In this document: piece by piece, positions 4,346-59,640 of the stretch
How positions within the stretch are numbered: the first letter of the stretch is position 1
Layout of the letters: every line of letters begins with the position of its first letter
Assembly: GCA_965113315.1 (NCBI GenBank)
Contig: OZ220379.1
Direction: 5' to 3' (one strand)
Source of the DNA: Podarcis vaucheri
Taxonomy: Eukaryota
Length of the DNA: 64,000 bases
Position numbers and translations under genes: made by a program
The notes under the pieces: model-generated
What the model was told of the DNA's origin: nothing
Database searches by the model: none
The model's input: only the letters and a program-made list of their open reading frames with translations

Positions 4346-4348
<3 letters not shown>

Positions 4349-8547: not shown

Positions 8548-9421
8548 TAAGTAAATGTACAAGTGAGGGTTATTAAACATCAGCACTAGTGCATTTTGGA
8601 GGAAATGTGAGAGAATTTACAGTTAAATGAACAAAATGCACCCGCCATTTGGTATTAGAAGGAATTTTAAATATTTGCTTCTCCATTCTCTGTTGCTGAC
8701 TAGAACAAAATAGCTGTGGAAAATAAACAAGTGTGCCTTTAACTGCAATCCATAACCCACACTGGCATCCTAATTGATGAATAAACTTAAGCTTGCAACT
8801 CTTAAAAAAAAAACCTGACTCTTATAGCATGTCAGCTATGATACTGTTCAATCCAAAAACAGATGACATGGCTTTGCTTTGGTTGTATGAGAACTAAATG
8901 TGATTTTAAGAGATTCTGTATTTATTCCACTTTTGCCTCTGATGAACATTTTTGAAGGTTTATGCACACAGGTGCCCCAAGACATTTTTGCTTTCTGAAG
9001 GACACGCACATACACACACACACACTCCCCCCCAAAAAACACACACACTCCCCCCACAAAAAAACCTCCCACAAAATTACAGCACATAGTACCCAAACCA
9101 ATCAGTGAATTTTGTTACTTGAGGTAGACAATTTGATCAAATTTCTGATTTGATCCTGGAATGTCCCACTTTTCCTTAGGACGTCCCTATTTTCATCGGA
9201 GAAATATTGGAGAGTATGGAGTTATGTGACCCCCCAAGCCAAGGAGATAAGTAACTATGCAACCTTTAGAAGACATCTGAAGGCAGCCCTGTATAGGGAA
9301 GGTTTTTTATGTTTAATGTTTTATTAAAATATTTTTTATATGTTGGAAGCCGTATAGAGTGGTTAGGGTTACCCAGCCAAATGAGTGGGGTACAAATAAA
9401 ATTTAAATAATAATAATAATA

Positions 9422-9637
9422 CAGTGGGACCTTGGTTCTCAAACTTAATCCATTCTGGGAGTCCATTTGACTCCCAAAACCTTTCCACAACCAAGGCATG
9501 GCTTCTGATTGGCTAGCTCCTGCAGCCAATCGGAAGCCGCAGAAGCAGTGTCGGATGTTCAGCTTCCAAAAAACGTTCACAAACTGGAACACTCACTGCC
9601 GGGTTTGCTTAGTCGTTCGAGTACCAAGGTACCACTA
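9422..9637. mobile_element. Tigger-like MITE family C
   Basis: TA flanks; CTGCAGCCAATCGGAAGCCG core; related copies at 43999-44218, 21995-22129 and 17050-17204. Confidence 0.85.
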
Positions 9638-10567
9638 TACTATTATTGAATAGGACGTCCCTATTTTCATCGGAGAAATGTTGGAGGGCCTTCATTCATA
9701 TGTCTGGCTCCTCTTGTTTCTCTGTCTCATCCTTTCCCCATGAAAATGCGAAGCGACTGTTCAGAAAGCGTAAGGCAGGCCTCGTGTTATATGACTTGAG
9801 AAATCAGAATCCCCGTTCAGACCGTTGCCAGTAAATGGCAGCAATTGCTAGGGGATTTGGAGAGCGGGGGCGGGAGGAGGAGAGAGAATGGAGGAAGAGA
9901 AAGAGTGGAAGAAAAGGAGGGGTGGAAGAGGGTTTGCGTTTGGCTCTTCATTCTCTATTCATTGTGAAATGGGGATCACTCTAGCTAACTGGCCCAGAGA
10001 GATAAGGGTTTCAGACAATCTGCCTTAGGCTGATAAGGACAGCTTGCATTGCGGAAAGATTATTTGTTAAGAACCTTGGTGGAGTAAAATATACAGTCAA
10101 AGGCCTTATCGCTGGAACTCATTACCCATTCACACACATGGTCACCGTCACCAATTTTGCTATAAACACAAATCATCCGCTTGTAGCTGAACAACACAGG
10201 GATGATATACATGCATTGGTTGGGGGGAGGGGGAGACCAGAGATGGGGAAAGGAGGAGAAGAAATGAGCACATGCTTAGGACTCCTACAGCCACCACCAT
10301 TTGTCCCATTGTTTGAAGCCGCCATTCTCATTTAGCCATTTTTTAAAATAAAAGAGGACATATTCTTGTCCATCCTCAATGCTTCTTAACCACAGAGCTA
10401 GCCAAAGCTGAAGGTTGCTTCTCACTATTCAGTTTTATCTGAATGGTATAGCTCACTCCAGGGGCAGTTATTTTTCCTTGTGGCAAGAGTGAGTGCTAGA
10501 GATTTTCGGCATTTTACAATATCTGTTTCCTTATACAAGCTAATAGCTATGTCCTACCTCCCCTGGC

Positions 10568-11100
10568 TTGGGAGAAAAGCAATGACAAACCTAGACAGCA
10601 TCTTAAAAAGCAGAGACATCACCACCTTGCCAACAAAGGTCCGTATAGTTAAAGCTATGGGTTTCCCAGTAGTGATGTATGGAAGTGAGAGCTGGACCAT
10701 AAAGAAGGCTGATTGCTGAAGAATTGATGCTTTTGAATTATGGTGCTGGAGGAGACTCTTGAGAGTCCCAGGGACTGCAAGAAGATCAAACCTCTCCATT
10801 CTGAAGGAAATCAGCCCTGAGTGCTCACTGGAAGGACAGATTGTGAAGCTGAGGCTCCAATACTTTGGCCACCTCATGAGAAGAGAAGACTCTCTGGAAA
10901 AGACCCTGATGTTGGGAAAGATGGAGGGCACAAGGAGAAGGGGACGACAGAGGACGAGGTGGTTGGACAGTGTTCTCTAAGCTACCAGCATGAGTTTGAC
11001 CAAACTGCGGGAGGCAGTAGAAGACAGGAGTGCCTGGCATGCTCTGGTCCATGGGGTCACGAAGAGTCGGACACAACTAAACGACTAAACAACAACAACA
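10568..11100 (+). mobile_element. BovB (RTE) LINE 3' fragment
   Basis: RT C-terminus (KLRLQYFGHLMRREDSLEKTLMLGK...RWLD), (AAC)n tail, 12-bp TSD ACCTCCCCTGGC (10556-10567 / 11101-11112). Confidence 0.95.
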
Positions 11101-11452
11101 ACCTCCCCTGGCAGAGGCAGTATGCTTCTGAGTACCAGTTGCTAGAAGCAGCAAGAAGGAAAGGCGCAGTCGTGCTCAGGTTACAGCTTGCTGGTTGTGC
11201 ATGCGCAACTGATTACGCACGCTGAACCAGGTGGCTACTGGTCTGAACCCATAGGCTTGTCTTATCTCCACAGGATTGCGAAGTTGGGCACCGCTCTACA
11301 GTGCTGATGGTTCTCATTTTGAGTAGGTTTTGCCAATGTTATCAGAGGTAGCAAGGCAACATGGACCATCAGCTCCCTGCAAAGTCAGTAGAGATTGCTC
11401 CATTAGGGTGAATGTGGCACTGCCCCACCAATTCAAGTTGTCTTCAGCCAGT

Positions 11453-16728: not shown

Positions 16729-16729
<1 letters not shown>

Positions 16730-21562: not shown

Positions 21563-21776
21563 TCAGTAGAGTTGAATGACTTCTTCCCATTCGTTGATAG
21601 GCCAGATCCCATTGGGCTGGACGTTGGGTGGAGAGTTTTTCCAGTCCCACATCTTCACGGGTATCTTCCACTCTTTACCGTAGTTGGCTTCAATGTAATG
21701 GAGAGTTTCACATGGCACACGTACCTTGAGTTCTACGAACTCAGTCCAACATAGTGTAAATTTGGGAAACAGATAC
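21563..21776 (-). CDS. FKTN: Fukutin last coding exon (TGA at 21565-21563)
   Basis: 214 nt, [13 protein letters not shown]...[13 protein letters not shown]. The nine exons sum to 1386 nt = 461 aa + stop with consistent phases. Confidence 0.97.
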
Positions 21777-22558
21777 CTGTGTCGCAGAAAAAGAACAGGA
21801 AGGTCAGTGATGAAGGAAAGGGGCTTTGTAATCCAATCAGTGAAATGTGGTGCGACTTCATTGACTCTGCATACACATAATGTTGTAAGAATTCTGGGAT
21901 TGAGTAAAAGTGTCTGCATCCAGATTGCATATTGCAGAATTTGGGCTAAAATGGCTTCTACAACTACATACTAAACACCTTTGCATGACTTATACAGACG
22001 TACCTTGGTTTTCGAACAGCTTAGTTCTGCTTCCTGCAGCCAATCAGAAGCCGTGCTTTGGTTTTTGAATGTTTTGGAAGCCGAACGGACTTCCAGAATG
22101 GATGCCGTTCAACTTCCAACGTACGACTGTACTGGCAAATTTGGGTTGAACAATTATAGTTAACCAAGAGGGTCCTGAACAACAAACCCGCTTCCCCAAA
22201 ATGCCTGCATTTTTGCAATGGGAAAACTCACTAGAAAACGTGGGGAAACGCTTGTCTAACCTCACTGCAAACCAATCAGAATGAAATGCTCATTAAATAG
22301 CCAACACTGTCCATTCTCCCTGCGAACAAATCAAGATGAATGCTGAACAGGTCCCCTAGAACCACACCCAGTTTTATCCAAAAAGTGGTTTGAAAGCCAC
22401 TGGTGGTTTGAAAAAGTGGTCTGCAATTCCCTCGTGGTTTATCGTTTTTATATTGGTGGTAGAATGAAGCTGCACTACACTAATTGCTAAGATTATCTCA
22501 TATTGCAGTTTGTCAAGCTCTATTTCCTTCCCCCACAGACGCCAAGTCTGACTCATAC

Positions 22559-22686
22559 TTGAATTTCTTGCCCGATTTGGCCTGAGTTCCGCCATTCCAC
22601 ACGTGGTCATCCTCTTCATAGAAGAAAAATATATCGAGCTTTACTTCATCCTCTCCTTGAAAGGAGAGCTCCAAGCTGTCTTCAAC
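22559..22686 (-). CDS. FKTN: Fukutin coding exon 8
   Basis: 128 nt, [42 protein letters not shown](K). Confidence 0.97.
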
Positions 22687-23608
22687 CTGTAAGGTAGACA
22701 GGGGGAAAGCACCTTATATGACACAGATAATATTAAAAGAGGCTGCAAAAGTCAAACACTGCAAACATACAAGAGGGACACATGCCAGGTCTTTGCGCAA
22801 TGATTTTTAGGCACAAATGACATGATACATGTTTGAGTTTTCTTTATTTTATTTTTTTCTGTTACTAAAGCATGCTTAAAATAAAGCAGCATCTGCTGTA
22901 GAGAACCCAGTCTGCACCACGCTCCCAATCTGGATTGGGGATCCTGCACCAAGTCTCCTGTTGAAAACCTTCCCAGACGACTTGCCTACCCAAGTATTGC
23001 TTGCACTATATGGCACCCTAGGGGTTGGGGAACTAGCAACCGTGGCAGAAAAGGGTATGCTTTGGCAGGGAACAAGAAGCCAGTTGGGACCTCGCTCCAG
23101 ACTGAGAGCTGGCGCATCTTCAAAACAAGGAAATAGTTTAAGCATGCATTTTTTAAAAAAATTATAACCGGTAACTGGGCTTTGTAAAGAAAACCAAGAC
23201 TGTTCCTAACCGTTTGGGCTCTTTAGTCACACCAGGATTTAACGGCCTGTTTGAAACCACCTTATCCATATACAAATAAACATTTATTCATGGTTATCAG
23301 GTATACTGTATGAGAAGACTATTTATATATCCAGCCTTTCCCCCAAGAAGCTCAAGGTGGCATACATTTTTGCCGGGCCTGATGCTCAGGATGCCTAGAG
23401 GTCTGTGGAGTGGGGTGTGTCGTTTAGGGGTTTGTGTTAAGGTCAAGTTTTAATTTCGGAGCGACTTCATTTTTTGCTGTTACTGGTATGAATGCTTTGC
23501 ATCATTATTGCTGGACTTTATCATGACTTATGTAACGACTGCTTACTTTTATTGCATGCTTGTTTTCATTTATGGCTTATGACTGCTTTTGCAACTAAGT
23601 AAATCTTT

Positions 23609-23968
23609 TGGTGCTGGAGCAGACTCTTGAGAGTCCCATGGACTGCAAGAAGATCAAACCTCTCCATTCTTAAGGAAATCAGACCTGAGTGCTCACTGGA
23701 AGGACAGATCCTGAAGCTGAGGCTCCAATACTTTGGCCACCTCATGAGAAGAGAAAACTCCCTGGAAAAGACCCTGATGTTGGGAAAGATGGAGGGCACA
23801 AGGAGAAGGGGACGACAGAGGACGAGATGGTTGGATAGTGTTCTGGAAGCTACCAGCATGAGTCTGACCAAACTGCGGGAGGCAGTGGAAGACAGGAGTG
23901 CCTGGCGTACTCTGGTCCATGGGGTCACGAAGAGTCGGACATGACTAAACGACTAAACAACAACAACA
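23609..23968 (+). mobile_element. BovB (RTE) LINE 3' fragment (FKTN intron)
   Basis: Near-identical to the 10.6-kb copy; (AAC)n tail; TSD AAATCTTTTGGTG / AAATATTTTGGTG (23601-23613 / 23969-23981), whose 3' end overlaps element sequence. Confidence 0.95.
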
Positions 23969-24365
23969 AAATATTTTGGTGTGGTAAGCTGTGATATATC
24001 AATATATTGCCCAAAATCAGTTTGAAGTCCATATCGTGATATTGGTTCCATAATTTTTGACCCGGCAATATATCATGAATCAGTATGTGTGTGTGTGCTC
24101 TATTCAAAAATCACAATGTGAGGGAAGCTTTTAATGTTTGATGGATTACTGTTATTTTAATATTTTGTTGGAAGCCGCCCAGAGTGGCTGAGGAAGCCCA
24201 GCCAGATGGGAGGGGTATAAATAATAAATTATTATTATTATTAATGCCTCTACATAGCTTCATCCTTATTTCAGACATCGTGGTATATCAGTATATCACA
24301 ATGTTTAGTTGCTGATATATCACGATGTTGAAAACCAGAAATTGCCCAGCCCTATAAGCCTATAA

Positions 24366-24710
24366 GGGACGCAGGTGGCGCTATGGGTTAAACCACAGAG
24401 CCTAGGACTTGCCGTTTAGAAGGTCGGTGGTTCAAATCCCCGCGATGGGGTGAGCTCCAGTTGCTCGGTTCCTGCTCCTGCCAACCTAGCAGTTCGAAAG
24501 CACGTCGAAGTGCAAGTAGATAAATAGGTACCGCTCCGGCGGGAAGGTGAACGGCATTTCAGTGCGCTGCTCTGGTTCGCCAGAAGTGGCTTAGTCATGC
24601 TGGCCACATGACCCGGAAGCTGTACTCCCTCGGCCAATAAAGCGAGATGAGCGCCGCAACCCCAGAGTCGGCCATGACTGGACCTAACAGTCAGGGGTCC
24701 CTTTACCTTT
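24366..24710 (+). mobile_element. Sauria SINE, full length (FKTN intron)
   Basis: TSD TATAAGCCTATAAG (24353-24366 / 24710-24723, edges overlap the element). Confidence 0.95.
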
Positions 24711-25038
24711 ATAAGCCTATAAGCCGGTTTGAGCATGGAAAGGCAGCATACAAATAAACAACGCTGTTGATACATGGTTCTGTCCTCCCACCCTTTTTGT
24801 CCTTACAACAATCCTGCAAGGTAGGGTGACTAAGAGTGATAGTGACTGGGACCCTGGGTCACTAGGCAACCTTCATGACTGCAAAGAGATCTGAACCCAA
24901 ATCTCCCCAGTCCAGCATCCACTGCTCCACGGTAGCTCTTCCAACACACAATATTTTCTTCCTGTTAAGAGCCTAGAAATGCACACCCTGGAAAGGAGGG
25001 GTTACAAACAGGGCAAAGTGCCCAAGTCAGGTGTGTCA

Positions 25039-25260
<222 letters not shown>

Positions 25261-25642
25261 CTATGAAGATTTCTTCTAGTTTGCTGGGGACTTGCAGAGG
25301 AGGGGTTGGCAAAGGCTGTAAGGATATGGTGGCGAAGTGGGGTTAGGGAGTGGAGCAAGTTAAGGGTCGCAGTGCCTAGTTCTCTCCCATCATTACATAA
25401 AGAAGACTGGTGACCTTCTTTCCAGGGACATTCCAAAATTTCGGCGAGTACTGGGGTGTTTAAGGCTTAAGCCATTTAACCATACATGTTTCAAGCTGTT
25501 TTGGTTCATATTTCAGTTTTGGAATATGAAAATGTGTCTTTGCATGTTTGTCGGTTTCGCAGTACCTGTTAAGACACCCCTGAGTAACTGAATGCATTCA
25601 GTTCTCAATCTTAGCGACCAAACGTGACCACAAGCTTCTTAC

Positions 25643-25772
25643 CCAGGCAAGTTCCACTGCTCAGCCAGAATCTGACTCCTAAACTGTTTAATGTCAGAGA
25701 AGCAAGATGCATCAAGGCCTTGGCTTTCTTTCTGAATTCAACAGCATCCAGAGATACATCATCAGGGTACAG
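25643..25772 (-). CDS. FKTN: Fukutin coding exon 6
   Basis: 130 nt, [43 protein letters not shown](G); not in the ORF track, read by hand. Confidence 0.96.
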
Positions 25773-26563
25773 CTAAAAAATAAAAGGGAAATTGTAAACG
25801 ACTCTTGCATTATTTTCATACAGTCAACTGTTTACAGCTCCCACCAAACTACTTTTTTCCTGCTGTTTCAGTATTTTAACTTTTGTTATGTTTTAAAGTA
25901 GGGTTGTAATTTTCCTTGATTTTTCTTGTTTTATCTTTTTGTGTATCGCTTTGAAGTCTTTTACAATCAAGTGGTATATACATTTTATGAAATAAATCAA
26001 TCAATATTTAATGAACTTCAAGATATATTCAAACACAGGTAAATAACCATTTTTAATACAGATTTTTTTCTATGCCAGTATCTACTGCCGTGGCACAGAA
26101 GATACTATTATTTTCCTGCTTTCCTGTATAAGATAGATTCACCTTTGTTTCCATGCACAGGATTTTCATTCTTTGGCGCCACCAAGTGTTAAAGGATTAT
26201 AGCAAAATTATTTATCCGTATTGTTCTGTGGCTGGCTTCGGGACTATAACATTAAACTACCAGTGGGCTGGATGGGTAAAAGGGTTCATAGGTTTCAAGC
26301 TATTTCCATTAACATTTAAATCTGAAACAGGACTCTGGGGTCAGGAAGCAAAGAACCATGCAGATACTTCTATGTACCAAGGGGAGCTTTGACTTGTGAT
26401 TCATGAACAGCACTCTTCCACACTTTACAGCAAACAATGTTTCCAACTGTAGTTCATTGGACCTTGGAATACATATAAGTAAACAATTATTTAAACATGA
26501 GCCACGTAAGAGATCAGAAGCTAGCTTCACCACCATTGCTTATCTCTGGAGGTAAAAAAAAAG

Positions 26564-26940
26564 AAGGTAAAGGAGTCCTGGTTGGTTAAGTCCAGTCAAA
26601 GGTGACTATGGGGTTGCAGCACTCATCTCCGCTTTTAGGCCGAGGGAGCCAGCATTTGTTCATAGACAGCTTTCCAGGTCATGTGGCCAGCAAGACTAAA
26701 CTGCTTCTGGTGCAGTGGAGCACTGTAACGGAAACCAGAGCGCACGGAAGTGCCGTTTACCTTCCCGTCGCAGCAGTACCTATTTATCTACTTGCACTGG
26801 CGTGCTTTCAAACTGCTAGGTTGGCAAGACATGGGACAGAACAACAGGAGCTCACCCCATCGTGGGGATTCGAACTGCTGACCTTCTGATCAGCAAGCCC
26901 AAGAGGCTCCGTGGTTTAGACCACAGTGCCACTCATGTCT
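26564..26940 (-). mobile_element. Sauria SINE, older subfamily (FKTN intron)
   Basis: Reverse complement of the same core (GTACCTATTTATCTACTTGCAC) and AAGGTAAAGG tail. Confidence 0.9.
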
Positions 26941-27229
26941 TACATCTGTAGGATCCGTATAGCATATATAAATCAGCAAGGCAGGAGGAGTTAAATCAGG
27001 ATTGCACAAATCACAATCCAGCCATGCACCGAAACAGCTCACTGTCTGCTTGACTACAACTCTCTCCTCTTATTTTCACAATCAGAGGCAAGCCGTTTAG
27101 TAGGCCACTGCAGGTTGTTCATAGGCAGCATTGGGCTTGGTGGGTCATAGGGTGTGCAAGTCTGCAGCAAGATATTTTCATATGATTCTATAGTCTGGGA
27201 ACAAAGGCATCCATCCACACAGTCTAGAT

Positions 27230-27408
27230 CAGTGTTTCCGAAACTTGGGTCCTCCATCTGTGTTTTTGGTTGTTGTTTTTTTTGGGGGGGGGACTACAAC
27301 TCCCATCATCCCTAACTAGCAGGAGCAATGATCAGGGATGACTGGAACTGTAGTCCAACCCCCCTCCCAAAAAAAAACCAGCCAGGCAGCCAAGTTTGGG
27401 AAACCCTG
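27230..27408. mobile_element. Palindromic hAT-type MITE
   Basis: TSD GTCTAGAT/ATCTAGAT; GGACTACAACTCCCATC core. Confidence 0.85.
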
Positions 27409-27556
27409 ATCTAGATATACTAGCATTCCCATTTAAGCATGTTAACTCTGACGACAACAACAACCATTTTAACCCTGGGGTGGTGGGGGAAACCAGGCAA
27501 GCAACACTGGAAAATATTTCACATTTTGGGTGAAATGCTACTTGATAGCCACTAAC

Positions 27557-27689
27557 CTGGAAGAAAGATCGAGCTTCTCTGTACCTACATTCAATAAACC
27601 TGGAGTGGGACCTTTCCTCTAGGAACTGAGATGGCTCTTTTGGAATCTGGACTGTCAACCCATCAATGGAAACACTTATTAGTTCTAGC
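27557..27689 (-). CDS. FKTN: Fukutin coding exon 5
   Basis: 133 nt, [44 protein letters not shown]; donor GTTAGT. Confidence 0.96.
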
Positions 27690-28000
27690 CTGTTACAAAG
27701 GAGGAAAGAGTCACATTAACCTGGCCAGAAAACAAGAGCAACTTTCATGTCCGGAAGGTGAAACAAAATGAAACACAGGAGCAGCTGCAGTCGCTTCATA
27801 TGCAAAGGCTGCAAATTATCTATTCTCACCCAACTACTCCAAAATAACTCATTCCATTTGGACCAAACGAGGTGTTCTGAAGCTGTTCAGCCCATCTGCA
27901 CCAACAACAAACAAATGCCTACGATGGGAAGGCGGAATGGAAAAAGTAAAACAGCACCAGGTGAATCCCTTTAGCCAAATGGATCAGGGACTCTGCCATA

Positions 28001-28175
28001 CAGTGGACCCTTGGGTTACGTAAGTTTCGGATTGCGAACACAGCAAACTCGGAAGAGCGCAGAAGCGTTCTATCGCGCCGCACACGTGCACAGAAGCAGT
28101 GTCTCTAGATGCGGACTTTTCAGGGTACATAAGGAGCCCAGGAATGAATTAAGTTTGTATCCAGAGGGTCTGCTG
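28001..28175. mobile_element. Tigger-like MITE
   Basis: TA|CAGTGGACCCTTGG...CCAGAGGGTCTGCTG|TA. Confidence 0.8.
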
Positions 28176-28691
28176 TACTAGAAACAACCCATCGGATACA
28201 AGGGCAGAGGTACATTACTTGCCTAATGAAAGATTTATCCGAGTGCCTTTTCCCCTTGGGGGACCATATACTTATTTTCAGCTACTTGCATTTAAGGATG
28301 TGTTGCAACATGATGAGCAACAAGCTGTTTATTTCCCAGCTATTTCTTCTGTTTGGCCCCATTTTGAAGCCTCACAGCCCAGTGGCAACCACATCCTGGT
28401 GGTAAAGGATTTCCGAAGTTTAAAATGCATTTATTTGTCCTGTCCTGATTTTATAGCCAAACATCATCACTGCACGATTCCCTGTTCTAGTGTCATGCAT
28501 CAGGGTGGGAGAAGAATATTGTCGGATCATGAATGTAAAACTTTTCTCCATTGCTGTTATCTCATTGACTTCAGAAACCCTTTTCATTTGTTGTTCAGCA
28601 AGGATACAAGGCAAGCCGGACAGCTGTGTGCTTTGCATGAAAAACTCATGCATCAAATAGAAACAGAATACACTGCCTTGCCATTTCTTAC

Positions 28692-28969
28692 TTGTCGTAG
28701 GCTCCCGGGTAGCGGCCAAACGGCAACTTCCGAAAAGGTACAAACTTCCGGTCCATGTGTCGCTTCAGCCGCAGCTGTCCATGCCAGAGGTAGTTCCCGC
28801 TCCTCTCATAAAAGACCACCAGATGGATGGCATGCGCTGCCAGTCTGAAAATGTAGTGTAAGGGAATCTCCATCCCAGAGAGGTCGTCCATCCCTTCTAG
28901 ACGTGGGTCTTTGCTCTGCAGCTTTAGCCACTGGAAACCCATTCTCTCAGCAGCTCGAAACAGGCCCAC
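28692..28969 (-). CDS. FKTN: Fukutin coding exon 4
   Basis: 278 nt, [24 protein letters not shown]...[10 protein letters not shown]...GRYPGAYD(K). Confidence 0.97.
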
Positions 28970-29603
28970 CTGAAATTGACACGCTGCATTTTGGCTCAGT
29001 ACATTAAACACACACACACAGTCCTGCTTTGCAAAGCACTTGCTCTTCTGTTTCAAAATGAAACAGAACCCCCTCTTTGTGGGAATGCAATTATTCTTAC
29101 AATCTCCTTTTTAGTTAGTTCATAGCTTCTCTGAGTTATTCAAGCCCCTTCGCCACTGCAAGGCAGTGATCCATGAAGGAGAGTTCTAATAAATACACTT
29201 AACCAACTTATTTGGCTTCACACAGTTCTCTGAATACCACTTGGCATTTATTTTCATACCCTTCTTTAAGTGTAAGAAGCGTATTAAAACCTCTTTTGTG
29301 CTTTTCTGCAGTTTTCCTCCTGAGTAACAATACATTCTGTTAAGATATGAAGGCCAAAACAAACAAAAAAACCTTCAAATACGAACCACAGAGAGACACA
29401 CTCCAAGAGATCTGTTGCTGTTGTGAGGTACCTTCTAAGCAACATTTGCCTTGTGGTCAAGTCACTCACCCTGTGACTCCCCCTTTCTCAAAAATTCCTG
29501 AGAAATGCACCATAAATGTTTTGATATTTTGTCTCTATGCTTACTTGATCTAAAAGTTGCAAAGTTTAGCATAGATAGGTAAATAAAGATGAGACAAATT
29601 TAC

Positions 29604-29807
29604 CTCAAGTTTCCAGGCTTTGTCCAGGACGGCAAAGGTGGTAAAGTCCCGTCGAGCACAGAGGTATCTGCATTCTGAGTGGCTGCTATCAGGAGAGGTC
29701 CTGAGCTGCTTCAAGTCTGTGTCAATTAGTCCCAGAAGCAATGGATCAATCAGATGCACAGGTATGTTGTGACTGGACATCAAACTAATGAATTTCTTAA
29801 CAACGTG
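29604..29807 (-). CDS. FKTN: Fukutin coding exon 3
   Basis: 204 nt, HVVKKFISLMSSHNIPVHLIDPLLL...RRDFTTFAVLDKAWKLE; AG/GT boundaries. Confidence 0.96.
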
Positions 29808-29937
29808 CTGTGTAAAGAGACAGGAAAGGGAAAAAACATCTTTAAAAAGCTTTTGAAGACCCCTAAGTCAATAAAGTAACAATAACGGGTATCATACTGA
29901 TCAAAGCAGCAAAAGAGATCTTATACATCTTATACTC

Positions 29938-30470
29938 AGGGCTGCCTCTGAAGACGGTTCAGAAACTTCAGCTAGTGGAGAATTCAGCGGCCACGCTGCT
30001 CACTGAAGCAAGATGGTTTGGGCATATTACACTGATCCTGGTCTGACTGCACTGGCTACCAATTAGTTTCTGTGCCCAATTCAAAGTGCTGGTTTTGACC
30101 TATAAAACCTTAAATGGCTCAGGACTGCAATACCTCTTTCATGTGCCTCCTCCTCGAGAGGTCCAGAGGGTGGCAACATGAGAACAGGCCTTCTCTGCAG
30201 TGGCTGTGGAATGCTCTCCCCAGGGAAGTTTGCCTGGTGCCTTCATTATACACCTTTAGGCGGCAAGCAAAAACATTCCATTTTAACCAGGCCTTTAGCT
30301 GACCTAATCAACACCCTATACCCTTTAAAATGTGGCTCTTTTAGGGGGGCGTTATTGGGTTATTGTTCTTATTTTTATTTCATATATTGTGACCTTTTTA
30401 GTGACCTGCCCTGAGACCACCGGGTGTGGGGCGGTAAATAAATTCAATAAATAATAATAAAATAATAAAA
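29938..30470 (+). mobile_element. L2-clade LINE fragment, second subfamily
   Basis: LPLKTVQKLQLVENSAA...LHWLP...AQFKVLVLTYKTLNG; (AAT)n tail; related piece at about 50680-50850. Confidence 0.85.
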
Positions 30471-30495
30471 ATACTTTCAGTGCAAAAGTACTTAC

Positions 30496-30555
30496 CCACC
30501 GACTACCGTCTTGCCCTGCTTTGTTCCCTTTAACCTTGGGGAAAACAGCTCCATT
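30496..30555 (-). CDS. FKTN: Fukutin coding exon 2
   Basis: 60 nt, TTAG|...|GTAAGT, NGAVFPKVKGNKAGQDGSRW; phase 0/0. Confidence 0.92.
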
Positions 30556-31036
30556 CTAACAAAACCAAACAACAGAGAAGAGGCTTTGCAAGTCAAGTCC
30601 TAGTGCTACCACCAAGACAAATGAGAAGTGAAGCTTTGGTGATATTTTTCAAAAATATTGCATTTTTTAATATATATTTGAACTAATCTATTTTCAGCTC
30701 AAAGAGTACACACTTCCTCTGTTGACTAACCTTCTGACATACTACACTGGAATCAAACTATAAAGATAGCAATGGAGCTAGAAAGCTCCACTCCACTTGA
30801 CCAGAAAATGGCCAGACCGTAACTTGGAACATATGAAATCTGACTTTAACCATGTTTAAGCCATATTGATTTCATTGGAATTTACTACCAAGCAAGAATG
30901 TTCAATACCAAGCAAGTTTCAATCTCGCGTCTCCCATCTTATTTTAACAAATCACTATAAACACTTGTTTGGATTCGTTCTGCTGAATGTAGCTGTGTGG
31001 TGTTGTTGTTTTTAAGTGAGCTGCCAGAGTTCTTAC

Positions 31037-31141
31037 CCTTGGTGATAAATAGTATTTATAATAGTACAGCTGGAACAGGAGAAAGACTGAGCTTGTCAAA
31101 GTAAGAAGGCCCAAAACCACGTTCTTGTTAATTCTCTGCAT
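31037..31141 (-). CDS. FKTN: Fukutin coding exon 1 (start codon; cytoplasmic tail and signal-anchor TM)
   Basis: Encodes [35 protein letters not shown] (105 nt), then donor GTAAGA. The exon extends 5' as UTR to an acceptor (CCCCTCCCTTTTCCCCCAG), first exon base 31240. Confidence 0.97.
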
Positions 31142-38531: not shown

Positions 38532-38654
<123 letters not shown>

Positions 38655-39781
38655 CTAGAAAACCAATATATAAAAGATGGGGGGTCATCAGTGCTCTCTT
38701 CTTGCTCAGAGTCAATTAAAATCATGGCAATCACTGTACATCACAGCATTTTTCTGTCTGTCCCTCAAGTTTGTTGAAACCCCTATCTTCTCTATAACTA
38801 GCCCTTTTTTACCAAAAAGCTGACCAGGGGAACAGTGAGAATGACAATGACTAACAGTGCTGTCACTTTTTGAAAAATTAAGAGGCTCAAATCCAGTTTA
38901 GCCATAGTTATATTTTGAAACAGTTGCTCTGAACTGCTTAAACAGTGTCACCTTTTCTACTTTTAAAATTTGCTGTTAATATAAAAATAAAACTCAGGTG
39001 AGGAAATTCTCGCTATCTATATTGAGAGGAGGCTGACAGTTTAGCATTTTCTTACGTTTCTAACACAAGGTGGGGCGGGAAGTCTAGTTTCAACAGTGTT
39101 CTATATTACACTCCAGCTCCCATTCAAGTTTGTTTTAAGGGAGAAAAATTCACAACCCTACTTTAAAAACATACAAATGTTAAAATACTAAAACAGATAA
39201 AATTACTTCAACTTTCTAAGTATCTGGGTAGGCTCATCTAAACAAGAGAAGGTCTGTGATGTATATTCAGAACAAAAACAAAATTCTGCTCCCAGGCAAT
39301 TTTGTATAAGTTATGCACATTGTTTTGCAGTTACGAGGGCTAGAGTTATAATACATTGCTTTTTAAAAAAGTGTAAGCTAGAGATTTTCAGGGATCTGCA
39401 CATCTTTGTCCTCCTCCAAATACTGCTGGACTCCAACTCCCATCAGCCCCAGACAGCACAGGCAAAGGTCAGAGATAATGGGAATTACAGTCCAGGAACA
39501 TTTGAAGGGTCACAGGTTAGAAACCTGCATTTCCCCATTAGAGGTTTCTCTTCTTCGGGCATATACAGAGCCCTGGAGCTAGTCATCAAAGTGGCTGCTA
39601 GTTTTTCCTTGAGCAACCAAGTTTAATAAGCATATAAACATGTATAGAGGTCAGACAGTGACGCATCAATAACCCAAAAGCACCTGTGGCATTCAATGCG
39701 AGTCTTTTCCACATTATGAAATTATTCCTAAAAGTAACTGTAGAAAAATAGCCCTTGAAGCAGAAATGATGGAATGAGTTA

Positions 39782-40542
<761 letters not shown>

Positions 40543-41282
40543 TCAACAACATGGGGAGAGGACCAAAGGTTTCCCACTCCAGTGCAGATCATAATGATAA
40601 AAACTAAGAAAGCTTATCCTCCCTCCCCCCCCCCCGAAAAAAAACCTTTCCCACAATGCACAAGACAAGGAACTCATAAGTCACTTACTCTCAGCAGCTA
40701 GAAATATCATAACCAGATCCTGGAAGGACCTATCAGGAGTGAACATACACCACTGGTACCAAAAAGTATGGGAAACTGCCCTACCAGAAAAATTAACTAG
40801 CATGGGGACAAGCAAAAGAGGACACCTTCGCCCCGGTGTGGCTTCCCTTTACCACATATACAGCACAACAAGACAATGACCTACCCCCCACATACAAATT
40901 AATATGGCTAATCTGGACACAACAATCCTGCCCCCCTCCAAACAAACCATACTGCAACCAACCAAACGCAAGCAATCAAACTTTGGGCCCTCACATCTCT
41001 CAACATGACAATAAAACCCCCCAAATAATTATATTAATAAAGGACCTACCCATGAGATGCTGCCACAAAAACTCTGCACTATACAATAGAATGAAAAGAC
41101 CATTATCCTCCTCAACCCTCTTCCTCTTTTCTCCCAATGTCTATGGAAATAGAGTCTCGCACCAAATGTAAACAAACTGAAAAAGATTTTATGAATTGAA
41201 AGTGGAGGTGCTATATCTACTTTTCCTTGTGTGTGTGGGTTTTTTTTTTTTGTATCACAAAAAAATAATAAAAACTAATTTA

Positions 41283-41522
<240 letters not shown>

Positions 41523-43431
41523 TTAAATCCAGTTTTAGACTGTTTCACAGAAGCATTTATGGTCACAGATGGCTCACATGCTGTTAGAGGGGTCTGTTCC
41601 GGTAGCCATGCTGAAAGTCTCTATATCTATACAAATAGCCATGCACAGAAGAGGCTACCAGTAGAAGAAGAAAAAAAAAACATGCTAAGACAACAGAAAA
41701 GTTACTATTACTGAAGACTAGGAGGGATATGTGCAGGATAGGAATGAGTGAACTTGAAGTGTAATTCTGGGGGGGGGGGGGAGTGTCCCATTGATCCGAT
41801 TAGAAATGAGTTATTTTAAAATAAGATAGAAACCCAGTCCCAATACATTAGCCATCTTCCCCACACCTCTGGTGGCATGAATGTTGAAGTGGCATGAATA
41901 TAGCAGATATAGCATTTACTGTTTTCAGAATGAAGTTCTACTGTGAATTCTTAAGACATTTAAACGCAACACTGAAAAGGCCTTTGAACAAACGAAACGT
42001 ATTAAAGGAAAGTTACTTACCAAAAGAAAAAAAGAAATAAGTGAAAGCATGAAAAGACAGCAAAGCCAAGAAATTAAAAGCATATATTGGGGGGGGGGGA
42101 GGAAGGGGACACACCACAGTGTTTGACCCTACTCCAAGTACATTGTTACTAGGAAGCCTGCTACTTTCTGCTTTCTATCATAAAAGCAACACGTTAGGTT
42201 CACTGCCAGGTTATGTAGAAAAATAGCATGTTTGTTCAAGAGATGCTGCAATTGATACAAGGAAGGCACAAACTCAGAATAACTTCCCACTTCCACCAGA
42301 TCTACCAAAATGCTGACATGCTATTTTTCAGGTAAGTGCTCCAAGTTCCCTTCACCCAGAAGATGTCCTTAATATTAGCAGCCTTTACAGGTACACAACT
42401 GAATTTAAAATATTTTATATTTGGTACATTTGAAGACATGATTCAATACAAGCCGAATTCTCTGCGTTTAATTGTACTGTTGCAATGCCAACATGCATGC
42501 CGGTTTTGTTTTGATAAGCCACTGTGGAACTAACTAATGCAATTTCTATGGTGTTTTATCTGTTCATGTAAAATCAAAGAATAGCAAGTTCTTTGGACAA
42601 CGTGTATTCTCCAAAGGAAAACACACATTGTAGTTGCAAAATGCCAAAATACTTGTTTGGCCCGGAAACCCAGTCTAACTTCCAATTCTGTATGCCTAAC
42701 TCAAGTACCTGCATCTCCAGAGGGAAGAATACACAAGGGCTGAAATCTATACTGCAGGTGATACACGGAGACCAAATAGCCTTGTCCCCTTCTCCAGTAA
42801 TGCTACAAAAACAAAGCACCATGCTGCAAAATGATCCTCCTCACTTGATTGGCTACTGCTTGCAGAGGCCAGGACCAATAAGTGCAAAAACTCAACGTTC
42901 CTTCTTGAAATAAAATTACTTAATGCAGAGAACGTAAGACTGAGAGAAAAAAACCAGAATCTGCCTTTAAAGATTGTGAAGGATTTCTGTATTTAAAGGA
43001 TGCAGTTATGTTTGTTTAGTACTGGAAGAATCAAATATCCCCATTTATTACTACAAAGTGACAGACTAGGCCTATGGTCCCATTACAACTGGGGACACAG
43101 CCCAGTGTGTACCATAAAATACAAGAGGCATTAGCTTGTTGGCAACTGGTGCATTTTACGTTGCCTAATTTTAGTGTTAGCGGTTCTCATTTCTGTAAAT
43201 TGTCAAAACTTATATACAGGCTTGGTGATTTTACAGAAAGGCAGTTTGAACGGTAAATACAAAAGATGACAAATAAGTGGGGGAAAGAAGGATCTAAACA
43301 ACAAACAGTGGCTTGTCTACTGGTAAAGGCTGCTGGATTGATTCATGCTAACTCTAGAGAGCAAGAATTGAAAGGAAAATATTGGAGAGTAAAAAGCTGA
43401 ACCCTATGGCTATGAAGAGGCACACTGTCAC

Positions 43432-43464
43432 CTTGTATTGTTCTTCAGAAGGGTAATCTGGCAA
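43432..43464 (-). CDS. FSD1L: Candidate FSD1L 33-nt alternative cassette exon (S-CQITLLKNNT-R)
   Basis: TTTTTGTCTGACAG|TTGCCAGATTACCCTTCTGAAGAACAATACAAG|GTGACA; symmetric phase 2/2, no stop; resembles an insert (SVHVTSLKKHTR) I recall at this position in mammalian isoforms. Confidence 0.65.
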
Positions 43465-43799
43465 CTGTCAGACAAAAATAGGTAATTAAAAAGCTACTTC
43501 GTGGCTACACACAGACTTATTTTTTAAAAAAATATATTAGTATTTAAAACCACTACAAAACTGTTCTGATAACTATTAATAACTGTATGCTGTTCACAGA
43601 CTTACAAACAGAAAACACCCACTTGCTTACAAATTGAAATGTAACCAAAATGGTTTAAGAAGTCTGCATAAAATAGGTTTGGAATCTATTAAACCCTGTT
43701 TGAGTTTTATAGCCTTTTTACCTCTTGAACTTAATGTGTTACCAGCTCCCTGTTCACAGCTGGGGTGGGGGTGACATGAAATACGTTCCTATTACTGAG

Positions 43800-44575
43800 A
43801 CTACGGGAGTATAAAGTTTCCAAGGCCTGGAGTCTCCTCCTCCCTCTTACGGAAAATACTTCATGGGAAGTAAAAAAGTGGTCCGGGTATTTGGACTCGG
43901 CAATAGCTCACTTGACAACAATACATCTACTTGCTCCCAGACAATACTATTCCTATAGTATAGGAGAGCACATCCCTGTCACCTATGAACCGGCAATACA
44001 GTGGTGCCTTGGTTCTCAAACAGCTTAGTTGTTGAACAAATCAGCTCCCGAACACCGGTTTGTGAACATTTTCCAGAAGCCGAAGATCCGATGTGGCTTC
44101 CGCTTGAGTGCCGGAAGCTCCTGCAGCCAATCGGAAGCCGTGCCTTGGTTTTCGAATTGTTTCGGGAGTCAAACGGACTCCCGGAACAGATTAAGTTTGA
44201 GAAACCAAGGTACCACTGTATTTTGGTATGTGGCAATTGTGGAAGCTTACGGTATGCCAACAAACCCCCAACATTTAAATCCACCTTGGAGGAGGAGAGG
44301 AGAGTGAAGAAAGAGCCGTGAGTGGAGACGGAGCCTTTCCACATCCTCAGGACCCTCTGGGAAACTCAACTCACCTGGGTGGGGAGAGAACAGCTGAATG
44401 GGACACAGGATGAGAGTGAGGATGTGCCAGAAGGAAAATGAATTGATATTGATTCATATATGTTAGTAACTTGGTACTAATGTAACCTTTTCATATGTAA
44501 CTGCGATTTTGTAATATTTTGTTTAATTGGCTGTCGCTGCTCCGTTTTTTGTACAGCACTTAATAAAGGTTTTTA
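43800..44575 (+). mobile_element. Degenerate L1-like 3' fragment interrupted by a MITE
   Basis: With the MITE removed it reads IHLLAPRQ...FWYVAIVE(KLT after frameshift), resembling L1 ORF2 C-termini; T-rich 3' region and AATAAA near 44562. Confidence 0.4.
43999..44218. mobile_element. Tigger-like MITE family C
   Basis: TA|CAGTGGTGCCTTGGTTCTCAAAC...GTTTGAGAAACCAAGGTACCACTG|TA. Confidence 0.9.
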
Positions 44576-45244
44576 ATATATTAAGTGGTGTAGAAGTTAA
44601 ATAATCTAATCTATTTGGACAACAGAAATTATTCTTTAGACCAACACAATCATCTCAGAAAAGCTCCCCAACAGATTTTGTTTTTACAGGCCAGACTTTC
44701 TAACTTGCTAGAAATATATCAAATGATTTTTTGTAAAAAATAAATAAAAATCATTTGATAAATTTCATTTTTCTAATTTACATAGAAAAAGATGCTTCTA
44801 GAGAGCTCATGATTTGTGCATAGGTCATACGACTGAATCACATAAGGGCTAAATACTTAACCCTAAGAAGAATATGACTGCTAGTATTATTTTTCAGCAG
44901 GGGGAATTGTTTTTAGTAATGTACCCATGTTAGGGGAAAAACAAAACCAGAGCTACCTTGCAACACTGTCACTTTTTCCAGAAAAAGAAATTCCCCATTT
45001 CCAACACAGGTTTCAAGGTTATTCTCTTCAATAGATGCCTCAAAACTTTACCAGCAAGTATGCTATACTGCCAAATACATTAAGTTTAGTGTGAATAGAT
45101 TCATTAAGTTTATAGCAATATGAATAATCTCTTTTGCACAGGAAGACTTCCTACCTGATAGACCAAATTTATATTTGCTGAAACAGCCTTTAAATATGAC
45201 ATCTACAAGTTAACTTGATCGGAGGAGGAGCTCAGTTTCCCTTA

Positions 45245-45397
<153 letters not shown>

Positions 45398-48300
45398 TCA
45401 AAAGGTTTGTCACACCTTTTCTGAATGCAAAGAGTGAAGAAGTTAACATATTTAGATAGGCTGCCCAGGTTCCCTACCTAAGACAAGTCTACTTCTGATG
45501 CTATACTTCTAATTATTGTTTTTTAAATGCTTACTCCACCTGCCTGCTTTTATTTTAGAGAAAAATCAGCCATAGTGCCCAATTCAGAATATTGCATCAT
45601 AGAACCACAGAATTGTAGAGCTGAAAGGACTCCCAAGGGTCATCTAGTCTAACCCCCTGCAATGCACATGGCCTGTATGGGAATTGAGCCCATAACCTTG
45701 GCATGAACAGAACCACACTCTAACCAACTGAGCTAACTGCTGCTTGCTTTTGATCTGGATTGCATTGATTAATATTGCTCCCTCCCACTCTGCTCTGAAC
45801 CCGCCTCCCCCCCCTTAAAAAAACCCCCGATATCCACTACAAACAGCACCTTGGGTGCAAACAGTCTGGAAAGTGGTGTTTTCTGCAGTAAATCAGCACT
45901 GGAGCATGTTCTAGATTAGGGGCCCTTGGCTGCTTTGTCTCCAAAGTATGAGCATGGTTTTTGAAAATGCTAACTAATGTCCTGTGCAGTTTGGCCCTTA
46001 ATTTACAGTGCCAGGGCGTGCATCTTTTTCTGAAAGGCAGAGCCTGTTATAGTTCTCAATTTTAATCTGTGGAGGGGGGAAAATCCGTATGTAGGGCAAT
46101 TCTTTCTGTTAACTGTCAAGGCTGTCAGTGTGCCAGTAGAGCTGTACAGCAGGGACGGGGGAGCTGGGTCCAGCCAGGGAACCAGATCGTTATCTCTCCC
46201 ACTGTCCAAGGGTCCATCTGTCAATCACCTGACATCACAATGCCAGGTGACCCTGCTTTTGTTCGCACGGCTTGAAATCAAACTGAGTAGGTAGAGATAC
46301 AGCCCACAAAGCAATGCTGATCAGCAGCCCCTGCAAAAACCCTTTCAGCTTAGCTCCACATCTGATATCATATATGGACACCAGGTACTGGGCAAATGGC
46401 CATGGCTTGGCTAAAATGGAGGCCTGCAGGCTTGATGTCCCACAGCATTCTTCAAGTAATAGGTTTCCAAAAGTTCTTATGACTAAAGGCAGAATACAAC
46501 AAGTTATTTTCAAAGCTAACTAAGAGATGCCACTGTAAGCAAGCATGGTAATTTCCTCGGCAGAGCATTAGAAGATACATACAGGTTATAATAAATGTAT
46601 TATCATCAAATCTTTCATGGGTGAAGCCAAATGTGTAACAGGCATATATGGAGAGAATATAACAGAAATAGCTACGTTTTACCCAAGAGATATATTCAAG
46701 AAGCTTTCCAGCTTTTACTGACACTCAGAAAATGACAATGAGGTAGGTAGTAACTCTTCCAGAGAGTTTTTAATACAACAAAGCAGTCAGACTGAGTCAC
46801 TGCTCCTCGCTGGAATTTGTAGTGGGGTAAATTTAATCTTTGTTACTGCCAACTAAGCAGAATAATTGAGGCTATGTTGCTGTGTTTGCCTTCATTTTTG
46901 GAAGCTAAACAATATGTGTCACACTAAACAGACTCTATTCAACTAGAATGCATTAGACACGGTTCTTTAGTATTTCACAGAATACAAGAATTGAAATTCC
47001 GCTGTGAAAGGTCAACAGTATGTTTAAGCAATGCCGAACTTGATGATTCTACCAGGCAAATGCTCAATAAGAGCACTGTAAACGCATAGTGTTTTGAAGG
47101 TCAACTAGAAATGCTCACCTATCACCAAAATGGGAATAAGGTACAGCTCTAAGAGTGGCATACGTTGAAAAGGCTTGAATAGTTCCAGTTGTTATATAGC
47201 AGACATGGAAAGTTTTCCTAATGCCCAAAGATGTAGATGTGGAGCTGAGCAGTGCAACTCCTTAAAATGTATGGCAATAGTTCTAATTTTAGAAGTGCAA
47301 CATTTGGTGATACAACCCATTACAAATATACATCTGCAAGCTCATTTGCCGACAAGCCAAGTTCTTTTTAAATATGGAGATTGTTATGGAGATTGTTGCC
47401 TTGCACTCTGTTTTTGCCTTGCTAGGATTATAATCCAGTGCTTCAAAGATGTCCTCTGACTTAAAAATTAAGAATGCTTTTTAATACACTACAGTAGCAA
47501 TTTACCACTAAAAGCTTTCTAGAATTTTTCTTTCACCAATGTGCAAGTACAGAGACACAACTGGTAATTTCATACGGCATAAGTAAACTGATCTGACTGA
47601 TCTGTGCATTAGCCCTCTGCTGATGACATCTTTAGCACACTCACATGCAACCCAGGCTTGTACAAGTTGTCATAAATTGAAAATAAATCCCAAAGCTGGT
47701 TGGGAGAACTGAACCTTATACTAGTGGTGCACTTTGCAAGTCACTCAATGACATCATTAAGAACACTTCTCATCTACTGGACTACACTGGCAGTGCTTCT
47801 GCATTTCAATGAATTGTCCTGCTATTTTTAAAAATATAAACATTAAAATAAATGAGCAATATTCGATCCGTGGGCAAACAATCTGCAGCTTCTTGACTTT
47901 TCTGAAGAAATATCCTGAGCATGATTCAATATGCTGCTTGCAACACTTCTGATAATATTTATGCAGCCATATTATGCCACTCAGGTGGAACTGGTGATAT
48001 ATGTGTTTATGTCACTCACAGGGTGAAAGGCATTTTAAGAATCAGCAGAACATAAGGTTTCAATGCTTACGACAGAAAATGATCCCAATCTCTATCATGG
48101 GATAGGAAGAAAAGGTACCAGGCTCTTCACTGTTATATCAAATGCACCAATATGAGGCCATAGCAGGATAAAAGTCTGATAAAGAATCAGGAACATCAGC
48201 AAAAAGCCATGTTGTTTTATCCGTCCTCAAGTAAGTGAGCTAACAGTGTGAATCTGCTTTGGCAACATATTCCAGTCTGCAGCACTGAGACTTCGTAAGA

Positions 48301-48917
48301 TGGCAAGAAAGCCACTGATACCTCCCTAGCAGCTGACTAACTTGCAGGCCAGGAAAGCTAACAAAATCTTACTACTGTTTTGGCTCAAGTATCACACCAA
48401 GAAAGCTAAAAAAAATTATTGCTGCAGGGCCACAAACAAATCCGCCTCACAATTGCTATCAAAGTGGTTAAACGGTTGCATGGCTTTAAATTGATGGCTT
48501 AAAATTGGTAAATTTTTGTCAACTGCGTATCACAGCAGAGTTAGTTAGTGAAGGGGTTTAGGATGAAAAAATCTGCACTGTTTATCAAGTGGGAGTGGCA
48601 CTATTTAGCACTTCCATCTCTAATCAGTGCCATCTCCCTATGCTAGAATTTGTTTAGAAGGTGTATGTGCCCTCAGGTTAATGTTTCTCCTGGTACCATG
48701 TCAACAATTTTAAATAGCAGCCCTTTAGACAGTGCAAATACTATAGTCCTCTGCTTCAATCCTTTCCTCCAATTCACTTAAACCGGCTTTTGGGCCTAAG
48801 GACTGGAGGTACATTAAGGTACACAGCTGCTGCTCTAAAACAACACTGTACATTTTATAGCCAAGATGGCATTTGAGCATGCATTCTATATCCAAGCCAC
48901 TATATAGTTCTTAGCTA

Positions 48918-49088
<171 letters not shown>

Positions 49089-49308
49089 CTATAACTATAC
49101 TGTTTTAAAGTGCTGCTTCTCCCAAGCTACAGACAAATTTAAGTACTATATCAATATTAGCTGAAGTCGAGGAAAGTGAATGAGATCAGATCTCCATTTA
49201 TCATGCTGGGAGTGCAAAACATTTGCAAATGCGGGCTTCACATTAGATGGAGCTGACATTAAAAGATTCCCATGAAAAAGTATGAAGCTCATGTTACAAC
49301 TCAAGTCA

Positions 49309-49641
<333 letters not shown>

Positions 49642-50871: not shown

Positions 50872-51030
<159 letters not shown>

Positions 51031-52413: not shown

Positions 52414-52436
52414 CTATCCTTGATCTGTCTGGCAGC
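52414..52436 (-). CDS. FSD1L: FSD1L 23-nt microexon (AARQIKD-R)
   Basis: AAG|GCTGCCAGACAGATCAAGGATAG|GTACAG; needed to bridge phase 0 to phase 2 between the flanking exons; matches the AARQIKDR I recall from FSD1L. Confidence 0.9.
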
Positions 52437-55294: not shown

Positions 55295-55530
55295 CAGTTG
55301 TACCTCCGTCTGAGAACAGTCCTGTTAACAAACGATTCAGGCAACACACTCTACAAAACCAGAAGTACGTGTTCCAGCTAGCGAACTTTGTCCCAGAAGA
55401 TGAACGGAAGCTGACTGGTGGAAGGGCACCGGTGGCAGGAAGTCTCATTGGGGAAAGTGCACCTCAGTTTAAGAACGTTTTTGGTGTACGAACGGACTTC
55501 CAGAACAGTTTGTAAAAGAAGGTACCACTG
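55295..55530. mobile_element. Tigger-like MITE
   Basis: TA|CAGTTGTACCTC...AAGGTACCACTG|TA. Confidence 0.8.
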
Positions 55531-55825
55531 TACAATATAACTTCTCCTCCTGCTCCTCAAACACACCCTATAGTTCTCATTTCATTCATGAAAACTACTA
55601 CCTACTGATTACAAAACCAGTAATCGGAATAGTACTATTATCCTGGGGTAGTCTGAATACATGTACTTGAAATGCTCAGAAGGTAACGATCACTCCAGAG
55701 ATTCTAATCAGCTCCACAATAAGTCCTCCACAATGTTTACTACACAATCTATAAGTGGTTGCAGGCAAATGGCATGCAATTAAACAGCATCTCTCCTTTT
55801 CTTCTTCATGTCAGGCACACTTTTA

Positions 55826-55930
<105 letters not shown>

Positions 55931-58342: not shown

Positions 58343-58516
<174 letters not shown>

Positions 58517-58877: not shown

Positions 58878-58955
<78 letters not shown>

Positions 58956-59514: not shown

Positions 59515-59640
<126 letters not shown>

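Follow-up and report, generated by a model that had tools for sequence, protein, structure and literature searches.

The window, by which we mean the whole 64-kb stretch of Podarcis vaucheri DNA analysed, carries the coding exons of FKTN and FSD1L on its minus strand. The FKTN exons lie at 21563..31141 (minus strand), where eight tblastn pieces (31141-21566) align to Zootoca vivipara fukutin at 62-100% identity and Pfam reports the FKTN_N domain; the last exon is closest to the Z. vivipara protein (93%), which identifies the host DNA as that of a lacertid lizard. FSD1L lies upstream of FKTN on the same strand (38535..59640, minus), where 11 tblastn pieces were recovered with a guinea-pig FSD1L-FKTN read-through protein as the query and Pfam finds fn3 and SPRY domains. 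About 7.4 kb separate the last FSD1L piece from the first FKTN piece found, and FSD1L-FKTN read-through models occur as several mammalian database proteins. Between the two genes, the stretch 32001-34000 is CpG-richer (o/e 0.81 and 0.66) and is likely the FKTN promoter.

The coding sequence of FKTN ends in a stop at 21563, and the first AATAAA downstream of it is at 19182. This puts the paired TAL/GATA sites that are the subject of this analysis 11.5 kb beyond the stop and about 9.2 kb beyond the signal. The original prediction placed TAL2 next after FKTN in human, and this part stands: the human gene order is FKTN, TAL2, TMEM38B (PMC8183635), with TAL2 described as the upstream neighbour of TMEM38B (PMC8594701), and FKTN is present in the window. 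TAL2 itself falls outside it, as neither the ORF lists nor a six-frame regex for the bHLH motif finds a TAL2 ORF in the 64 kb. The assembly has a gap of 190 N at 2412-2601, which is too short to conceal the gene. Read from the human gene order, TAL2 would come after FKTN in P. vaucheri as well.

Two composite sites in a locally unique block

Composite site 1 (9989..10007, plus strand; motif 9989-10005) reads CTG-N8-AGATAA followed by GG, and composite site 2 (10020..10038, plus strand; motif 10020-10036) reads CTG-N8-TGATAA, again followed by GG, with starts 31 bp apart. A weak third site on the minus strand (10104..10121) consists of TG-N8-CGATAA (10106-10121) followed by GG, its GATAAGG lying at 10104-10110; it has no W before GATAA, the base preceding its TG is A rather than C, and 72 bp separate its GATA centre from the one in site 2. 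The letters, coordinates, strand and 31-bp spacing originally given for sites 1 and 2 all match the sequence, as do those of the third GATAAGG, with TG at the same spacing and a CGATAA core. TG is thus found at N8 upstream on the same strand at all three sites and CTG at two, while the WGATAA core is present at sites 1 and 2 and absent from site 3 (CGATAA). All three cores read GATAAGG, a 7-mer with 11 occurrences in the window, these three included. Sites 1 and 2 are the only strict CTG-N8-WGATAA matches in the 64 kb (just 2/94 WGATAA have CTG at N8), and in a simple ranking of the window's GATA cores they share the top score, 6, which is reached by five sites.

The identity claimed for these motifs also agrees with published work, in which TG-N7/8-WGATAA is shared by TAL1 and GATA1 genome-wide in mouse erythroid cells as their co-occupancy grammar, with CTG-N7/8-WGATA cited as a form of it (PMC4702602). 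Neither main site contains a full E-box: the upstream hexamer of site 1 (9986-9991) differs from one by a single base and falls outside the (MA/BG)N2TG refinement, and that of site 2 (10017-10022) matches (MA)N2TG. In vivo, the full E-box is found at a minority of TAL1/GATA1 sites, and WGATAA by itself is a poor predictor of binding (PMC4702602).

The sites lie within a block, 9689..10575, defined as locally unique by self-blastn (word 7), nhmmer, Rfam and protein search. No second copy of 9680-10580 is found in the window by blastn (word 7) or nhmmer, save for one weak purine-tract match, and Rfam has no match in 1-24000. A 109-codon stop-to-stop frame over the sites (10006-10332) yields one candidate protein and none at E 0.01, in a comparison with near lengths only; a plasmid collection gives no match, which is uninformative for vertebrate DNA. 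The block is non-coding and single-copy within the 64-kb window. The lack of a second copy also bears on whether the region is a transposable element, a check raised with the original prediction, and speaks against it, as a weak test confined to the window. There is no CpG island at the block (o/e 0.45-0.47 at 9800-10200) and no RUNX or ETS match within 9900-10200.

On the left, the block is flanked by interspersed-repeat fragments with several window copies (9142..9688, self-comparison), and on the right by an interspersed repeat (10738..11101, plus strand) that is 94.8% identical to 23606-23969. Translation from about 10576 resembles the 3' end of a LINE that we take to be of the RTE/BovB family; Pfam reports no family there. 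Immediately left of the sites is a purine-rich low-complexity tract with two GC-box-like matches (9866..9930, plus strand), and a consensus scan of 9960..10168 gives a SOX-like match (9960-9965), a K50/OTX-like TAATCT (10057-10062, minus strand) and FOX-like matches (10061-10067 and 10162-10168). The SOX, OTX, FOX and GC-box consensus strings and factor labels are those we presume to apply, and because counts in the block are near the window averages, these matches serve as leads only.

Chance expectation and other GATA clusters

The strict CTG-N8-WGATAA motif is not enriched in the window, with two matches observed against means of 1.86 and 2.05 in order-2 and order-5 Markov simulations. A strict pair no more than 50 bp apart arises in 1/150 order-2 and 1/150 order-5 simulations. 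When the gap is widened to CTG-N7/8-WGATAA, a pair within 50 bp appears in 3/500 simulations of the whole window and in 4/2000 dinucleotide shuffles of 1-19180, the stretch beyond FKTN. Pairs of the looser published TG-N7/8-WGATAA are seen in 55/500 whole-window simulations and 36/2000 interval shuffles, and pairs of TG-N7/9-WGATAR in 278/2000 shuffles of the same interval (1-19180). A triple of TG-N7/8-NGATAA within 130 bp is obtained in 8/500 simulations and one of TG-N8-NGATAAG in 0/500, the latter being a pattern tailor-made after seeing the data. As a forking-paths control, 143 of 131,072 same-shape patterns give a pair 17-50 bp apart, at 95 loci in the window; among trimer-gap-WGATAA grammars, the proportion with such a pair is 13/512, at 5 loci. 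The only distinction of this pair among same-shape pairs is that its grammar was already known. For a pre-known grammar, P is about 0.5-10%, varying with the grammar, and the clustering is suggestive, not decisive.

The 31-bp spacing corresponds to 2.95 helical turns, 17 degrees off register, and simple arithmetic places about 3/10 of spacings within 1.5 bp of a whole turn, so a single spacing does not demonstrate helical phasing. The two 31-bp units are identical at 16/31 bases. Outside the motifs, identity is 7/14 in the first 23 bases (binomial P 0.047) and 6/20 (P 0.42) if the trailing GG is counted as motif; with the latter figure and no pair reported by two repeat finders, a 31-bp tandem duplication is unsupported.

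A grammar scan also picks out a second TAL/GATA cluster, at 53256..53343 in an FSD1L intron, which is not repeated within the window. Its 53256-53287 portion has a full E-box (53269-53274) and, at N7 from it on each strand, a WGATAA, in arms of 18 nt that are 83% complementary, and supplies the only two CANNTG-N7/8-WGATAA matches in the window, such a pair arising in 2/500 simulations. An E-box-N7-AGATA follows at 53326-53343, and RUNX-like matches lie at 53261 and 53350. Going by these motifs, the intronic cluster looks like a stronger candidate than the pair at 9989-10036, and one more of the blood type (TAL1/GATA/RUNX-like). At least two TG-N7/8-WGATAA pairs per window occur in 4/500 simulations, which slightly favours real TAL/GATA regulation somewhere in the locus. 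Mouse G1E ChIP-exo data have no chr4 row at coordinate prefixes 5369 and 5370, the only ones at which Fsd1l was searched, and no mouse r1 target feature beginning chr4-536 is among the rows listed in PMC12431775.

Further GATA matches lie on the TAL2 side of FKTN. At 1409-1551, three WGATAR fall within 130 bp, one of them overlapping an OTX-like TAATCC, and the minus strand carries CAGATG-N9-WGATA and TG-N8-WGATAG composites. Inverted WGATAA pairs are found at 8377-8404 and at 19531-19547, the latter within the likely FKTN 3' UTR; the former is probably repeat-derived, as it sits between repeat fragments (8195-8334 and 8472-8549) beside a 10-bp tandem repeat. Two non-repeated stretches on the TAL2 side, 2255-2290 and 7480-7620, are dense in what we take to be homeodomain (TAAT, TAATCC) and octamer (2279, 7542) matches, and appear to resemble neural conserved non-coding elements.

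TAL2 regulation in mouse and zebrafish

In mm10 coordinates, we take Fktn to end near 53.766 Mb and Tal2 to span about 53.780-53.787 Mb, which would place the mouse feature chr4-53770714-53772135 between the two genes and chr4-53796712-53797800 downstream of Tal2. Both belong to a file of mouse r1 targets, a target requiring a conserved, footprinted motif that lies under a CUT&Tag peak within an accessible feature linked to the gene, in which at least 20 rows, from these two features, name Tal2 (PMC12431775). The downstream feature is assigned to Gata2 and Gata3 with a Tal2 link z of 4.74. The intergenic one is assigned to Gata3, with conserved footprinted motifs below a CUT&Tag peak; Tal2 (z 6.88) and Tmem38b (z 8.1) are among the genes linked to it, and it has negative links to Slc44a1 and Rad23b; among the rows listed, its 16 rows are all in the Gata3 sheet and none in the Tal1 or Gata2 sheets (PMC12431775). 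At least 80 rows begin with chr4-537, the first of them coming after the Tal1 sheet (PMC12431775), and the target scores of Tal2 are 0 for Tal1, 1 for Gata2 and 1 for Gata3 (PMC12431775 supplementary file 8).

Mutant phenotypes vary with tissue. In zebrafish tal1 mutants, tal2 is lost in V2b cells, where gata2a and gata3 are retained, and in the KA' region it is lost in tal1 or gata3 mutants; the number of tal2 cells is unchanged in gata2a mutants (PMC5884927). Tal2 expression in the mouse midbrain survives conditional mutation of Gata2 and is not altered by loss of Tal1 (PMC3798194); in the Gata2-mutant midbrain it is no more than modestly reduced, on the dorsal side (bioRxiv 2022.01.05.473755). 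Since Tal2 is kept without Gata2 or Tal1 in the midbrain and tal2 cells are kept in gata2a mutant fish, an element of this kind cannot account for the onset of TAL2 in the midbrain. The TAL/GATA feedback on TAL2 proposed in the original prediction accordingly finds uneven support: the targeting of Tal2 by Gata2 and Gata3 in mouse r1 and the zebrafish requirement for tal1 favour it, whereas the Tal1 score of 0 and, for the midbrain, the persistence of Tal2 in the Gata2 and Tal1 conditional mutants (PMC3798194) speak against it.

The mouse Gata3 feature is not assignable to the lizard block from GATA sites, given the rival GATA clusters at 1409-1551 and 8377-8404 and the absence of a GATA-site excess: WGATAR density is 2.35 per kb in 1-19180 versus 2.43 in the FSD1L region, and composite density is likewise no higher. 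Either rival cluster could equally be the counterpart of this feature. Elsewhere, the available passages of PMC4432502, PMC4248312 and PMC10691053 contain none on Tal2 regulation, the PMC10691053 supplement has no Tal2 or Fktn rows, and the rows listed in the PMC12589128 supplements include no peak-level TAL2 links. A search of the TAL2 literature, mostly outside subscription papers, found no described TAL2 distal enhancer of this kind.

Mouse G1E ChIP-exo data were covered for all rows at prefixes 5377 (8), 5378 (12), 5379 (5), 5380 (12), 5369 (9) and 5370 (8), and for 2/6 rows at 5376 and 2/9 at 5381. Among the rows listed on chr4, 53,787,192, 53,799,958 and 53,800,014 are TAL1 calls by peak-pairing only, 53,806,774 is a GATA1 call by peak-pairing only, and 53,809,939 is a TAL1 call by MultiGPS only. 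The high-confidence GATA1 and TAL1 columns contain no chr4 row between 53.77 and 53.81 Mb. With an mm9-mm10 offset that we take to be about 12.9 kb here, mm9 53,809,939 would fall in the downstream Tal2 feature, and no listed row in the intergenic one, 53,787,192 being about 2 kb outside. Against the erythroid alternative offered with the original prediction, there is no high-confidence GATA1/TAL1 location in what would, by this offset, be the matching mouse stretch.

A candidate TAL2 element, its alternatives and known systems

The motifs, their spacing, the local uniqueness of the block and its place past FKTN are directly seen in the lizard DNA, and the grammar, the complex and GATA binding near mouse Tal2 come from the literature. 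Taking these together, we tentatively favour, at somewhat short of an even chance, a TAL/GATA maintenance enhancer for TAL2, and perhaps TMEM38B, in GATA2/3-positive inhibitory neurons of the hindbrain and spinal cord. In each unit, WGATAA would be occupied by a zinc finger of GATA2 or GATA3, and the half E-box, lying about one turn upstream of the GATA, by a TAL-E-protein heterodimer, with an LMO protein and LDB1 bridging the two. LMO2 is reported to bind TAL2 as well as GATA1/2/3 and to bridge an E-box to a GATA site one turn apart (PMC4632508), GATA1 dimers can occupy tandem GATA sites (PMC5220053), and losing the half E-box impairs BCL11A enhancers (bioRxiv 2023.05.27.542323). Two units three turns apart, together with the weaker third GATA site, could then be occupied co-operatively, with GATA as the anchor, and loop to a promoter, most likely that of TAL2 and possibly that of TMEM38B too. 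The cells would be post-mitotic and GATA2/3-positive (r1, V2b and CSF-contacting inhibitory neurons), and the role would be to maintain or boost TAL2 expression, not to start it. That TAL2 follows in the lizard, that the sites are occupied, and the cell type, target and any feedback are what we infer.

Such an element would be of an ordinary regulatory kind, and its action as a switch for TAL2 is plausible but unproven. TAL2 is a selector of midbrain and spinal inhibitory neurons, and the element, if real, would provide 140 bp of testable sequence for studying how the Tal/Gata circuit takes in TAL2. It could also reconcile the need of zebrafish spinal tal2 for tal1 and gata3 with the independence of mouse midbrain Tal2 from Gata2 and Tal1. 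Both the grammar and Tal/Gata cross-regulation, as a concept, are already established, and a 2025 supplementary table includes Tal2 among GATA targets. There is a version, which we consider rather improbable, in which the block corresponds to the mouse Gata3-bound feature, conserved across amniotes, and TAL1/TAL2 act with GATA3 to turn TAL2 on, or keep it on, in V2b and CSF-contacting neurons; the two half-E-box/GATA units would dock two TAL-LMO-GATA modules on one LDB1 dimer, and a TAL2 feedback loop would be in use caudally and bypassed in the midbrain.

It is unlikely, yet a prospect to be taken seriously, that the sites are a non-functional chance pair of common short motifs, arising possibly through an old 31-bp local duplication and singled out by a famous grammar and a suggestive neighbour. 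The strict-match count equals expectation, loose-grammar pairs are common (55/500; 278/2000), some same-shape pattern pair is present at 95 window loci, and WGATAA alone predicts occupancy poorly (PMC4702602). The resemblance of the 31-bp units (16/31; 7/14 outside the motifs, P 0.047) would suit a duplication, but it falls to 6/20 (P 0.42) with GG as motif and no repeat finder reports it; the CTG pair (3/500) and the relaxed triple (8/500) are rare, and Gata-bound, Tal2-linked features lie nearby in mouse (PMC12431775). Less probable is that the block is a genuine neural GATA2/3 enhancer of TAL2 or TMEM38B, its CTGs being incidental, with SOX, OTX or FOX factors as the partners of GATA and no part for TAL feedback. 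The mouse feature is indeed called for Gata3 alone and Tal2 is not a Tal1 target among the entries of PMC12431775, the filtered motifs for human TAL2-positive midbrain GABAergic neurons include OTX2 and GATA3 (PMC12589128), and OTX-, SOX- and FOX-like matches lie beside the lizard sites. Against incidental CTGs stand the CTG at an equal N8 in both strict sites and the TG in the third, when only 2/94 WGATAA have CTG there; moreover, the accessory motifs are close to window averages, and a Tal1 antibody presumably need not report TAL2.

We give a similarly low probability to a TAL1-GATA1/2 enhancer of erythroid or blood/endothelial type whose target would be FKTN, TAL2 or some other nearby gene. 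Erythroid cells are where the grammar was established (PMC4702602), the human TAL2 P2 promoter, which is not conserved in mouse, is bound by GATA1 in K562 cells (PMC3784441), and weak TAL1 and GATA1 calls occur elsewhere around mouse Tal2 (e.g., mm9 chr4:53,809,939). Against a blood element stand the G1E results above and the lack of RUNX and ETS matches in 9900-10200, unlike the FSD1L-intron cluster. Least probable is that the block is part of an old transposon, or an upstream (P1-type) TAL2 promoter or non-coding first exon. The first would suit the flanking repeat fragments but leaves the block without a second copy in the window, one weak purine-tract match aside; the second has a precedent in mammalian Tal2, whose ATG is preceded at about 6.5 kb by a non-coding exon (PMC3784441), but there is no CpG island at 9800-10200, the sole TATA match (10161, plus strand) faces away from the expected direction of TAL2, and the TAL2 ORF, if indeed it comes next, would be more than 10 kb off.

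The proposed TAL/GATA maintenance enhancer for TAL2 can be set beside several known systems. In the TAL1/E2A-LMO2-LDB1-GATA1 element (PMC4702602), of which the half E-box/GATA motifs of BCL11A +58 and +55 are examples (bioRxiv 2023.05.27.542323), the arrangement is that of lizard sites 1 and 2, namely C plus TG-N8-WGATAA with the same orientation and spacing. Unlike the erythroid composite, the lizard case has two tandem units 31 bp apart, lacks a full E-box and is known from sequence alone, and the setting proposed for it is neural, with GATA2/3 and TAL1/TAL2 instead of erythroid TAL1/GATA1. The autoregulatory GATA-TAL cCREs of mouse r1 Tal1 and Gata2 likewise have a composite motif near a Tal/Gata selector gene, but they come with footprints, conservation and CUT&Tag, and for Tal2 the same source finds targeting by Gata2/Gata3 and not Tal1 (PMC12431775). 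The mouse feature chr4-53770714-53772135 (PMC12431775 supplementary file 7), a putative counterpart of the lizard block, carries one or more conserved GATA motifs and, by the gene coordinates assumed above, would lie in the Fktn-Tal2 interval; it has no Tal1 call and is a table entry only, with Tal2 undiscussed in the available main text (PMC12431775). Finally, the lizard pair is a tandem with separate half E-boxes, as opposed to GATA sites placed symmetrically around one E-box; for several GATA sites sharing bHLH input, the closest likeness is the second cluster at 53256-53287. Judged by its letters, the pair at 9989-10036 fits the TAL/GATA composite.
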